This document shows positions 46,959 through 49,811 of a stretch of 64,000 nt of DNA, one piece after another. The translations under genes were made by a program, and so were the position numbers. The stretch is from NCBI GenBank assembly GCA_963747695.1, contig CAVVFV010000008.1:203592-267591 (forward strand). The letters are read 5' to 3'. The notes under the pieces were generated by a model, which searched no databases, was not told the origin of the DNA, and saw only the letters and a list, made by a program, of their open reading frames with translations. How positions within the stretch are numbered: the stretch's first letter is position 1; every line of letters starts with the position of its first letter. The stretch comes from Candidatus Falkowbacteria bacterium. Lineage in GTDB: Bacteria > Patescibacteriota > Patescibacteriia > Patescibacteriales > WJLG01.

Positions 46959-49811
46959 ATGGAAAAATTCAACCACCTGGAAATCGAAAAAAAGTGGCGG
47001 AAAATCTGGGAAGAGGAAAAAATTTATCGCACCCCCTCGGCTCCGCTCGGGGCAGGCGGCGAGGATCGATCCAAGTCGAAGTATTATGTTTTGGATATGT
47101 TTCCGTATCCGTCGGGCGCCGGTCTGCACGTCGGCCACCCCAAGGGATTCATTGCCACGGATATTTTGGCGCGGCTGAAAATGATGGAGGGAAATAACGT
47201 CCTCCACCCGATGGGTTGGGACGCTTTTGGTTTGCCCGCGGAAAATTTTGCTTTGAAAAATAAGATCCATCCGCGGGTCAGTACGGAGAAAAATATCGCC
47301 ACTTTCAAAAACCAATTGGAAAAGATCGGCCTGACTTATGATTGGGAGCGGGAGATCAATACGACCGATCCGGAATATTACAAGTGGACGCAATGGGCGT
47401 TTATCAAAATGTGGGAGAAAGGCCTGGCTTATGAATCGACGGAGCCGATTATCTGGTGTCCGACTTGCCAGACCGGTTTGGCGATGGAAGATCTGGAAAA
47501 CGGCAAATGCGAACGCTGCGAATCAGAAGTGATCCGCAAGCCGATGCGCCAATGGGTGATCAAGATCACCGCCTATGCCGAAAGATTATTGGCCGACTTG
47601 GATAAGCTGCCCGGCTGGGAAGACTCTATTAAAGAGATGCAGAGAAATTGGATTGGAAGATCGGAAGGCGCCGAAATCAGATTTCAGATAAGAGATAAGA
47701 AAGAAGAGATAATCGTTTTCACGACCCGGCCAGATACTTTTTCGGTTGCACTTATGTAGTGCTCGCGCCGGAGACACCCAGCAATTATAAATTATAAATT
47801 ATCAATTACAAATTGGGAGGAAGTAGAAAAATATATTGAGGCAACGAAAAAGAAAACGGATTTACAGCGGACTGATTTGAATAAAGATAAGACCGGCGTG
47901 AAGCTGGAGGGTGTGATGGCAGTTAATCCGGCCAATAATGAAGAAGTGCCGGTGTTCATCGCCGATTATGTTTTGCCGAATTACGGCACGGGCGCGATCA
48001 TGGCCGTGCCGGCGCACGACGAGCGGGATTTTGAATTTGCTCGCAAATACGATTTACCAATTAGAACCGTTGTTACAACTTTGAAAAATAATATTGTTGG
48101 CTCCGGCGCAGTGATCGAAACGAAAGATGGCAATTTTTTATTTCAAAGAAGAGACGATAAAACTGATCGCAATCCGAAAATGTTGGCTTTTTTTGGCGGC
48201 GCAACTGAAAAAGGAGAAGATACCAAGGACGCTCTAAAACGTGAAATAAAAGAAGAACTTAATTTGGAAATTAAAGATGATAATTTTGTTTTAATCAATA
48301 AGATAGAAAGTTCTCATTTTCCAGGAAGATTTCAGGATGTTTTTTATGTTAAAAATGTTGATGAGGAAAAAATGAAGCTTGGCGAAGGTGAGGCAATTGA
48401 AAGATATGATTTAGTTGATGCTTTGAATCGAGAAGACGTTACTCCATTTACAAAAAAAGTCATCAGGTATTTTTTAGAAAAAAAATGTTTTACCGAAGAG
48501 GGTATAAATGAAAATTCGGATTTCTTGAACGGTTTGCCGACGGTGGAGGCGAAGAAGAAGATGATTGAGTGGTTGGAAAAAGAGGGGAAGGGCAAGAAGA
48601 AAATTAATTACAAATTGAACGATTGGGTTTTTTCAAGACAGCGATATTGGGGCGAGCCGATCCCGATGGTGCATTGCGAGAAATGCGGCACCGTGCCGGT
48701 CGCGGAAAAAGATTTACCAGTCAGATTGCCGCAAGTCGAACACTATGAACCGACCGGAACAGGGGAATCGCCGTTGGCGAATATTTCTGATTGGGTGAAT
48801 ACCACTTGCCCCAAATGCGGCGGACCGGCCAAGCGAGAAACCAATACGATGCCGCAATGGGCTGGTTCGTCTTGGTATTATCTGCGCTATATCGATCCGC
48901 ATAATAATGAAGCGCTGGTGGATAAGGCTAAAGAAAAATATTGGTCGCCGGTGGATTTTTATGTCGGCGGCGCCGAGCATGCCACGCGCCATCTGATCTA
49001 TGCGCGTTTCTGGCACAAATTCTTATTCGATCTCGGCGTCGTCAATTATGAAGAGCCGTTCACTAAGTTTACTCACGTCGGTTTGATACTGGCCGAGGAC
49101 GGCCGCAAGATGTCCAAGCGCTGGGGCAATGTGATCAATCCCGACGACATCATCGCCTCTCACGGCGCGGACGCGCTGCGCGTCTATGAAATGTTTATGG
49201 GGCCGTTCACGCAAGCCTGCGCCTGGAACACCAACGGTTTGACCGGCGCGAGAAAGTTTTTGGACAGAGTATGGACTATTTCAGAGCAGAGAGAAGAGAT
49301 AAGAGAGAAAAGCAATAAAGAAATTTCTTCCTTGCTTCATAAAACTATCAAAAAAGTTTCTGCTGATATCGTTGAATTAAAATTCAACACTTGCGTTTCG
49401 GCAATGATGATATTATCCAACGCGATCGAAGCGGCAACCACCCCTAGCCCCTCCTTGGAAAGGAGGGGAATTTCCCAAGAAGATTTGGCCAAGTTCATCC
49501 AAATTCTTGCCCCGTTCGCGCCGCATTTGGCCGAAGAGATTTGGCGCGAAAAATTAGGGAATAAAGAGAGCATTTTCAAATCCGCCTGGCCGCAATATGA
49601 TAAAGAATTGATCAAGGATGAAACAATAAATTTAATCGTCCAGATCAACGGTAAATTGCGGGCGACCATTTCCGTCGCCGCGGATATTTCCGAAGCCGAA
49701 GCAAAAAAAATAGCGCAAGCCAATGACAACGTCAAAAAATGGCTGGCAGGAAAAGAAATCCTCAAAATAATTTTCGTTCCGGGTAAATTGATCAATCTCG
49801 TTATTAAATAA
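46959..49811 (+). CDS. leuS: leucine--tRNA ligase with embedded Nudix domain; locally out of frame at 47738-47780 as assembled
   Basis: HIGH: [18 protein letters not shown]1: [45 protein letters not shown]: RKMSKRWGN. Track pieces 46959-47759 and 47877-49811 are in the same frame. Confidence 0.85.
49436..49468 (+). repeat. K-family hairpin element inside leuS
   Basis: aaccacccctagcccctccttggaaaggagggg, encodes [11 protein letters not shown] in frame. Confidence 0.8.

Follow-up and report, generated by a model that had tools for sequence, protein, structure and literature searches.

A Nudix domain nested in the editing domain of a Patescibacteria leucyl-tRNA synthetase, and its exchange between diverged leuS alleles

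Introduction

Here we describe a leucyl-tRNA synthetase (LeuRS) gene, leuS, which carries a Nudix domain inside the CP1 editing domain of the enzyme, in a DNA segment that has passed recently between diverged leuS alleles. The gene lies in a 64,000-nt stretch of DNA from Candidatus Falkowbacteria bacterium (NCBI GenBank assembly GCA_963747695.1, contig CAVVFV010000008.1, positions 203,592 to 267,591 of the forward strand), which we call the window, and all positions given below are those of the window. The Nudix segment, which we call the cassette, is a 137-aa unit (48075–48485, plus strand, ending ...VIRYFLEKK) in a surface loop of CP1, as delimited by comparison with an orthologue that has no insert (P0128). 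It belongs to what we call type A, one of several Nudix types found in LeuRS. That it is a genuine Nudix domain nested in CP1 is near-certain.

The Nudix domain and its place in LeuRS

An earlier note on this DNA, made from the letters alone, had proposed a Nudix hydrolase domain within the CP1 region, and this proposal is borne out by the profile match, by the motif, by the fold prediction and by alignment with LeuRS of solved structure. The conserved LeuRS blocks that it named on either side (47985–48062, and NSDFLNGL from 48513) are at those coordinates, and the extra length that it noticed between them is real, with 150 aa separating '...LPI' from 'NSDF...' in the window LeuRS and 22–32 aa in close relatives lacking an insert. 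When aligned with HMMER to T. thermophilus LeuRS, 136 window residues stand against 12 residues (363–374) between the aligned blocks. The corresponding alignment to N. gonorrhoeae LeuRS puts the insertion point at residues ~382–389, and because the editing domain of that enzyme comprises residues 225–427 (PMC9424281), the insert falls inside CP1. The cassette starts approximately 20 residues past the conserved AHDxRD editing motif.

Searched on its own, the segment gives a significant match to the Pfam NUDIX family (PF00293), at 45.5 bits (E 9e-12, cut-off 21.1) over profile positions 5–133 of 134, with an envelope at ~48099–48470. This is far beyond chance. The Nudix box (48198–48266, plus strand) follows the pattern G-x5-E-x7-RE-U-x-EE-x-G-U with only the last G replaced by N, and it is preceded by the usual strand, both as the earlier note had it. 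Its predicted catalytic residues are E at 48216, RE at 48240–48245 and EE at 48252–48257, and the box-terminal position is G, N or D in other type A members. On the 3' side of the box, a Glu-Gly pair within LGEGEA (48384–48389, plus strand) corresponds to the invariant columns E109 and G110 of the type A alignment, making it a candidate additional metal ligand or catalytic base.

The curated models nearest to the cassette are MutT, NudG and NudI, each of which scores under its own cut-off. For example, the MutT 8-oxo-dGTPase equivalog (TIGR00586) gives 40.9 bits against a cut-off of 97.9, so the cassette resembles MutT in sequence and cannot be filed as MutT. Because none of these models reaches its equivalog cut-off, the cassette cannot be assigned the substrate specificity of MutT, NudG or NudI. 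A profile search of the PDB agrees in kind, with 3grn ('MutT related protein', E 4e-10) as the best match, followed by NudG and MutT. Some Nudix families have specificity markers downstream of the box: a Tyr ~17 residues after it in ApnA hydrolases and a Pro at +16 in ADP-ribose pyrophosphatases (ADPRases). Both are absent from the cassette, where +16 to +18 are S85, H86 and F87 and a Pro stands at +19, although this is a weak test. Together, the profile and fold matches point to nucleoside triphosphate (NTP) pyrophosphohydrolases of the MutT/NudG/NudI type, and not to Ap4A hydrolases in particular; the earlier note had suggested a link to aminoacyl-adenylates or Ap4A-type dinucleotides.

An intein was considered for this segment and ruled out. 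No HINT or intein family turned up in the Pfam scan, and the residues at the junction are those of LeuRS itself: the 'N|S' on the 3' side is part of the LeuRS motif NSxFLxGL, which is present also in LeuRS lacking an insert.

Predicted fold and conservation

AlphaFold2 (AF2), given a 20-sequence alignment of the cassette alone, produced a model with a pLDDT of 86.3 and a pTM of 0.81. A Foldseek search with this model returned only Nudix proteins, MutT-like ones first (3grn; MutT 3a6t, TMt 0.81), so the segment is predicted to form the autonomous alpha/beta/alpha Nudix sandwich which the earlier note had suggested looking for. A full-length model of the orthologue P0121, which is 82% identical to the window protein, had a pLDDT of 83.1 overall and 82–92 in its Nudix blocks, and its non-Nudix remainder superposes on E. 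coli LeuRS 4aq7 with a TMt of 0.86.

Across 20 type A sequences, which share 33–76% identity, R61, E62, E65, E66, E109 and G110 show no variation, and E53 shows almost none. The segment is therefore not a lineage-specific insertion lacking the REx2EE glutamates, an outcome against which the earlier note had measured its own proposal. Between the window and a syntenic orthologue (L083), the cassette has a dS of 0.85 and a dN/dS of 0.18, and the rest of LeuRS has a dN/dS of 0.086. Judged by these ratios, the cassette is under purifying selection, and its conserved residues suggest that the domain is quite probably catalytically competent.

Base composition and patchy presence

The cassette is foreign in composition. 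The earlier note had called the insert AT-rich, and its GC content is 32.7% vs 47.6% in the rest of leuS. The difference is larger at third codon positions, where the GC content (GC3) is 0.233 in the cassette vs 0.572 in the rest of leuS, with a mean of 0.565 ± 0.064 for the 29 other open reading frames (ORFs) of the window. All 393 windows of 150 codons in those 29 ORFs have a higher GC3 than the cassette. The cassettes of three other loci (L083, L089 and L091) are AT-rich as well, giving an overall cassette GC3 of 0.23–0.29 vs 0.38–0.57 in the host genes, and stand-alone type A copies are likewise AT-rich relative to their own loci.

The leuS locus is syntenic in four genomes, with the order POR, DsbA, ExoIII-like, leuS, (MFS in two), KsgA, TSP3-repeat protein and giant protein. 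Among these syntenic loci, the window and P0121 have a type A Nudix in the CP1 loop, P0128 has a short loop only, and P0133, whose core is the closest (88.5% identical), has an unrelated 60-aa insert there. Orthologues with 78–82% core identity have a type B Nudix in this loop. Divergence of the cassette is poorly correlated with that of the core (Spearman 0.30). In P0155, for instance, identity is 61% over the core and 68% over the cassette, and in P0125 it is 71% over the core and 53% over the cassette.

Transfer between diverged leuS alleles

The closest related contig (L001; ENA ERZ25039473 contig_76779) is ~88% identical to the window in leuS and the upstream DNA. Within leuS, however, a tract at 48006–48519 (plus strand) is nucleotide-identical between the two, as mapped by mismatch positions, with the exception of a single cluster at 48207–48262, and the flanks of this tract carry 5–16 mismatches per 60 nt. 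At 10% divergence, the probability of zero mismatches in 410 nt is ~2e-19. Of the 109 N-terminal mismatches between the window and this contig, 77 are at third codon positions.

A second clade shows the same pattern. Four Moranbacteria-like leuS alleles from separate samples (NCBI GCA_013335735.1; ENA ERZ27248911, which is the same allele as JGI Ga0265593; JGI Ga0207193; and JGI Ga0194047) are 83–87.5% identical overall and differ at 0–4 of 414 cassette positions. Their identical tracts are 443–572 nt long and end within ~100 nt of the cassette. Because the cassette is 99–100% identical between alleles that are 83–88% identical elsewhere, and this in two clades, its spread was both lateral and recent: it has passed between diverged leuS alleles in two independent clades. 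This lateral mobility is the most unusual property of the cassette, and the earlier note hinted at it only through the AT-richness of the insert.

The cassette encodes no endonuclease, and no direct or inverted terminal repeats common to both clades were found at its ends. The simplest mechanism is homologous recombination through the strongly conserved flanking codons together with selection, and the cassette might also have spread by an active, site-specific process. A bolder view is that type A is a new kind of mobile element: an in-frame, non-splicing domain cassette which actively homes into permissive loops of essential ATP-using enzymes (LeuRS at three sites, IleRS and Mur ligase) and sweeps from species to species in Patescibacteria, possibly because it protects the synthetase or its tRNA from nucleotide-based attack. 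We consider this view speculative and unlikely.

Two vehicles for such spread were examined and rejected. For transposon-like ends, the one repeat noted, a 10-nt sequence (GAAGTTATTA) near the ends of the L089 cassette, is absent from the window and compatible with chance. A phage or plasmid vector was sought with tblastn, which gave only weak, generic Nudix matches of partial length with ≤51% identity.

The cluster that interrupts the identical tract consists of 10 substitutions and a 3-nt indel (48207–48262, plus strand; contig alignment) and is confined to the Nudix box. In L001 the box reads GATKKGKDTKETIKKREIKEKLSL, in which two conserved Glu have become Lys and the x7 spacing has become x8, and 8 of the 10 difference sites are A in L001. 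Sequencing error is an unlikely cause, because the many homopolymers of the cassette agree perfectly between the two contigs. Gene conversion by a diverged paralogue, or rapid change of the active site, is possible. We also considered a diversity-generating retroelement and rejected it: the 64-kb window has no second copy of the cassette or box, and a T/C change and the 3-nt indel do not fit such a mechanism.

The host gene and its reading frame

The host is a bacterial-type leuS (46959–49811, plus strand) which encodes 950 aa after two 1-nt corrections. As deposited, it consists of two ORFs (46959–47759 and 47877–49811), the second of which alone scores 596.8 bits with the leuS_bact equivalog TIGR00396 (cut-off 548.4). 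The Pfam domains tRNA-synt_1, tRNA-synt_1_2 and Anticodon_1 are found in these ORFs, the HIGH motif is HVGH (47127–47138), the KMSKS motif is KMSKR (49107–49121), and the zinc Cys clusters, editing motifs, anticodon-binding domain and C-terminal domain are all kept. The N-terminal part of the CP1 editing domain (47643–48074, plus strand) was placed by matches to Pfam PF13603 in both ORFs and by motif coordinates: the TTRPDT editing motif, which lies inside FTTRPDT (47718–47738), and the GTG...AHDERD motif (47985–48029). Downstream of the cassette, the remaining, C-terminal portion of the editing domain and the chain leading back into the catalytic core (48486–48665, plus strand) align with residues 375–459 of T. 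thermophilus LeuRS.

The interruption in the deposited sequence, for which the earlier note had rightly called for a repaired translation, comes from two compensating 1-nt indels 35 nt apart, between which three-frame translations and alignment to L001 define a frame-shifted stretch (47738–47773, plus strand). Compared with L001 and the LeuRS consensus, a C is missing after 47738 and there is an extra G at 47773, and the uncorrected upstream frame ends at a TAG (47757–47759). The indels belong to the deposit, because a recorded protein from a 331-kb NCBI/ENA contig (P0390) is exactly what the C-terminal ORF encodes. They are probably assembly errors: recJ (37090–38870) is likewise broken, being split into three ORFs (DHH, DHHA1 and RecJ_OB), and the syntenic orthologue P0121 has an intact leuS frame, which together make assembly indels the likeliest cause. 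The frameshifts of both genes resemble long-read assembly error. L001 also contains two indels that compensate each other (47643/47688), besides others, and all of them fall within 47620–47930; it is odd that the indels of both contigs are concentrated in the same 300 nt.

Distribution of Nudix domains in LeuRS

Searches of NCBI, UniRef, JGI, ENA and Logan used the 644-aa C-terminal ORF product, Nudix included, as the query. They returned dozens of full-length Patescibacteria LeuRS (920–1100 aa) with both PF13603 and PF00293, attributed to Moranbacteria, Magasanikbacteria, Yonathbacteria, Lloydbacteria and Parcubacteria. The earlier note knew of no described aminoacyl-tRNA synthetase with a Nudix module fused in cis in its editing domain. 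In the literature we found no description of a LeuRS-Nudix protein, but the architecture is not a single case: it is common among Patescibacteria LeuRS and is already in NCBI, UniRef and JGI records, unremarked. A scan of NCBIfam likewise turned up no model for a LeuRS with a Nudix domain.

At least three Nudix types, as read from the sequences, occupy the same CP1 loop: A (the window), B, which is longer than A (GGGIE.GE...REILEETGY), and C. Type A itself is found at three LeuRS sites. Two are in CP1, namely the canonical loop and the beginning of the domain, and the third is a loop in the anticodon-binding domain. The third is the site in P0124 and P0242, and P0170 has two Nudix domains, a type A at the CP1 start and a type B at the canonical site.

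When the type A alignment was used as a profile in an exhaustive search, 13 representatives came up at E≤1e-30. Stand-alone homologues of 130–138 aa retain all type A motifs (E 1e-42 to 1e-30), and among the best matches are an IleRS-like protein with nested LMWPc and Nudix domains and a Mur ligase with a Nudix domain nested between its middle and C-terminal domains. Other searches were less productive. Among the matches listed, a scan of GTDB genomes with the type A alignment gave generic stand-alone Nudix genes only, none of them flanked by LeuRS; a scan of JGI metagenomes for exact 30-mers of the window cassette gave no match; and a word-indexed protein search with the Nudix core alone found P0001 only. 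One stand-alone type A gene (P0245) lies in a stretch (L087, NCBI GCA_041389145.1, 2642–7711) where short accessory ORFs are interspersed with small Nudix genes, three in number and separate from one another.

Nudix domains are not the only guests. LeuRS also hosts alpha/beta hydrolase, nucleotidyltransferase-like, ASCH, PDDEXK_3 and Ham1 domains, and in P0213 the nested domain is Ham1/ITPase. Some LeuRS have Nudix and Ser_hydrolase in tandem, or Ham1/ITPase, ASCH or PDDEXK_3 at the CP1 start. Patescibacteria enzymes with nested guest domains include P0286, P0263, P0241, P0246, P0213, P0176 and P0186.

Other features of the window

A heptamer tandem repeat, (AATTATA)n, has 16 matches in the window vs 0.06 expected and is mostly intergenic. 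Its sites are 375–516, 4863–4964, 24751–24770, 28000–28026 and 47783–47809; for example, an inverted pair directly follows the stop of the ORF at 2973–4862. The copy at 47783–47809 is in frame inside the CP1 region of leuS, where it encodes IINYKLSIT, and orthologous LeuRS have comparable periodic peptides at the same spot (EIGNWKLEIGNW, ISNFKFQISNY). Elsewhere in leuS, at 47033–47056, there is a 24-nt GC-rich in-frame insertion (CCCCTCGGCTCCGCTCGGGGCAGG) relative to L001, and orthologous LeuRS carry similar GC-rich, palindrome-like peptide inserts (e.g., SPLERGG...) at several loops. Small repeat elements seem to insert in frame in leuS genes.

Two very large ORFs of 1573 and 1086 aa lie 273 nt apart within 53299–61553. 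Syntenic genomes have a single gene of >2700 aa at this place, so the split in the window may be a frameshift or stop artefact. Finally, an AT-rich ORF at 10174–10899 (GC 0.32, GC3 0.29) encodes a Zeta-toxin family protein (Pfam PF06414, 115 bits) and is probably a laterally acquired toxin-antitoxin component.

Interpretation

We lean towards an explanation in which the cassette is an autonomous MutT-like pyrophosphohydrolase that uses a working LeuRS as its carrier and is exchanged laterally as a module. The window gene would encode a bifunctional LeuRS, i.e., a canonical synthetase with a Nudix cassette in a surface loop of CP1. The cassette would form an independent alpha/beta/alpha Nudix sandwich whose metal-binding box is complete, and would most likely be catalytically active as a small pyrophosphohydrolase of the MutT/NudG/NudI type that depends on Mg2+. 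Its candidate substrate is an NTP-like compound or a dinucleoside polyphosphate, hydrolysed while the domain is tethered to LeuRS. It would derive from a family of stand-alone, AT-rich Nudix genes of ~135 aa, enter permissive loops, mostly in LeuRS (at three sites) but in some cases in IleRS and Mur ligase, and then spread among related leuS alleles, probably by homologous recombination through conserved flanking codons. LeuRS function would be unimpaired, and the Nudix domain would work independently of LeuRS chemistry and not on a LeuRS- or tRNA-linked substrate. Several of the observations above weigh against this explanation. The deposited leuS is frameshifted, and the last Gly of the window's Nudix box is Asn. 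In L001, the nearest relative, catalysis may be dispensable or recently lost, because two conserved box positions have changed from Glu to Lys and the spacing is altered. Moreover, the capture of at least three Nudix types at one LeuRS site hints at a LeuRS-specific role, since a pure hitch-hiker model leaves it unexplained.

One alternative is that the domain is mechanistically coupled to its host, with the mobile editing domain delivering a Nudix enzyme which hydrolyses a nucleotide that the synthetase makes or binds (e.g., Ap4A/Ap3A by-products, damaged ATP or an adenylate-mimicking inhibitor) or acts on tRNA-Leu (e.g., on a modification of its 5' or 3' end). Aminoacyl-tRNA synthetases make Ap4A, and Nudix enzymes such as NUDT2 and RppH degrade it. 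The three types at the CP1 loop look unrelated and occur in different LeuRS lineages, one protein has two Nudix domains, embedded type A matches are mostly in LeuRS and at three different sites, and Ham1/ITPase, which nests in P0213, is another nucleotide-cleaning enzyme. However, the apparent enrichment of Nudix among LeuRS matches is biased, because the search query itself contained a Nudix domain, and type A is not confined to LeuRS, being found in stand-alone genes and in a Mur ligase too. Its closest characterised relatives are NTP pyrophosphohydrolases and not Ap4A hydrolases, the ApnA/ADPRase markers are missing downstream of the box, and aminoacyl-adenylates are not nucleoside diphosphate derivatives. 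We consider coupling unlikely. Somewhat less likely still is a conflict module, in which the nested Nudix and other guests shield or mend LeuRS or tRNA-Leu when these are attacked by a toxin, a phage factor or a nucleotide antibiotic, and strong episodic selection drives the sweeps, the turnover of guests and the changes in the active site. This would suit the near-identical cassettes in diverged alleles of two clades with tracts ending within ~100 nt of the cassette, the clustering of window–L001 substitutions in the catalytic helix, and a site held in turn by Nudix A, B or C, alpha/beta hydrolase, nucleotidyltransferase-like and unknown inserts. Nudix, PD-(D/E)xK and nucleotidyltransferase domains are typical of conflict systems (PMC7159879). 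In PADLOC, the top match is to PDC-S07, a Nudix of a candidate defence system (52.5 bits, E 9e-15, profile positions 6–126 of 135, in a library with no cut-off), but the system is only a candidate and the match may be generic Nudix similarity. The locus also has a housekeeping context (POR, DsbA, ExoIII and KsgA) with no defence island, no cognate toxin was identified, and the long-term omega of 0.18 is that of ordinary purifying selection.

Two further explanations deny the cassette an enzymatic role. A Nudix fold can serve without catalysis, as in NrtR regulators and TRPM2, and the cassette could be a ligand sensor or structural appendage which regulates LeuRS. The L001 box, with Glu replaced by Lys and changed spacing in an otherwise identical cassette, speaks for such a module, as does the box-terminal Asn of the window. 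With RE..EE and the downstream EG invariant in 20 homologues as diverged as 33–76% identity, the window included, and with the same motifs retained by stand-alone homologues, we regard a non-catalytic module as very improbable. An artefact, i.e., a chimeric insert made during assembly or a dead leuS with a meaningless insert, could be read from the two indels in the window and the others in L001, but we give this almost no credence. The same in-frame architecture is present in dozens of independent assemblies (NCBI, JGI, ENA and Logan), including intact proteins of 920–1100 aa; purifying selection is seen on both the cassette and the rest of LeuRS; 77 of the 109 N-terminal mismatches to L001 are at third codon positions; and the broken recJ points to assembly indels.

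Significance and comparison with known systems

Bacterial aminoacyl-tRNA synthetases are regarded as architecturally conservative. A 2026 survey of domain insertions called the LeuRS editing domain 'insertion-exclusive', i.e., never a host (PMC13114784), whereas here, in repeated cases across Patescibacteria, an entire second enzyme is housed within it. Should the Nudix domain be active, these organisms would have a bifunctional synthetase/pyrophosphohydrolase. The identity of cassettes, in two clades, between alleles that are 12–17% diverged and come from independent samples shows that folded domains can be exchanged laterally inside an essential gene, which bears on how reduced genomes gain functions, on the evolution of multi-domain proteins and on phylogenies that take leuS as a marker. 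The parts of this system are well known and its architecture is in public databases, although no literature description was found; its mobility is the new twist.

The closest likeness is to stand-alone small MutT-like Nudix hydrolases (E. coli MutT, NudG/Orf135 and NudI, and M. mazei 3GRN), which have the same fold, the same box and a size of ~130–140 aa and give the best sequence and structure matches. The window domain differs in being nested in a domain of another enzyme and in scoring far under the equivalog cut-offs. As a host, the window LeuRS is comparable to NCBIfam NF040702 (ileS_w_GNAT, 'isoleucine--tRNA ligase, N-acetyltransferase domain-containing'), a curator-recognised family which is likewise a class Ia synthetase with an extra catalytic domain, although both the synthetase (IleRS) and the guest (GNAT) are different.

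Synthetases and Nudix enzymes are also linked in trans, by LysRS and NUDT2 in mammals and by RppH/ApaH in E. coli. There, the synthetase side-product Ap4A is degraded by a Nudix enzyme, which is the functional link that the earlier note had in mind; the proteins of that axis are separate, however, and LeuRS is not a classical Ap4A producer. NadM-Nudix (NMN adenylyltransferase/ADP-ribose pyrophosphatase) is closer in one respect, as its Nudix domain is covalently joined to a nucleotide-using enzyme, and the cassette has a faint NCBIfam similarity to it (NF003785). NadM-Nudix is an end-to-end fusion with a clear pathway logic, whereas the cassette is nested in a loop of CP1, which is itself an insertion.

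In its behaviour, the cassette resembles inteins and Rickettsia palindromic elements in coding genes: an insert in an essential gene, patchy among orthologues and near-identical across diverged hosts, as after homing. Unlike them, it has no HINT or splicing domain, no endonuclease and no terminal repeats shared between clades. Unlike an intein, it stays in the mature protein, and it encodes a predicted folded enzyme under purifying selection.

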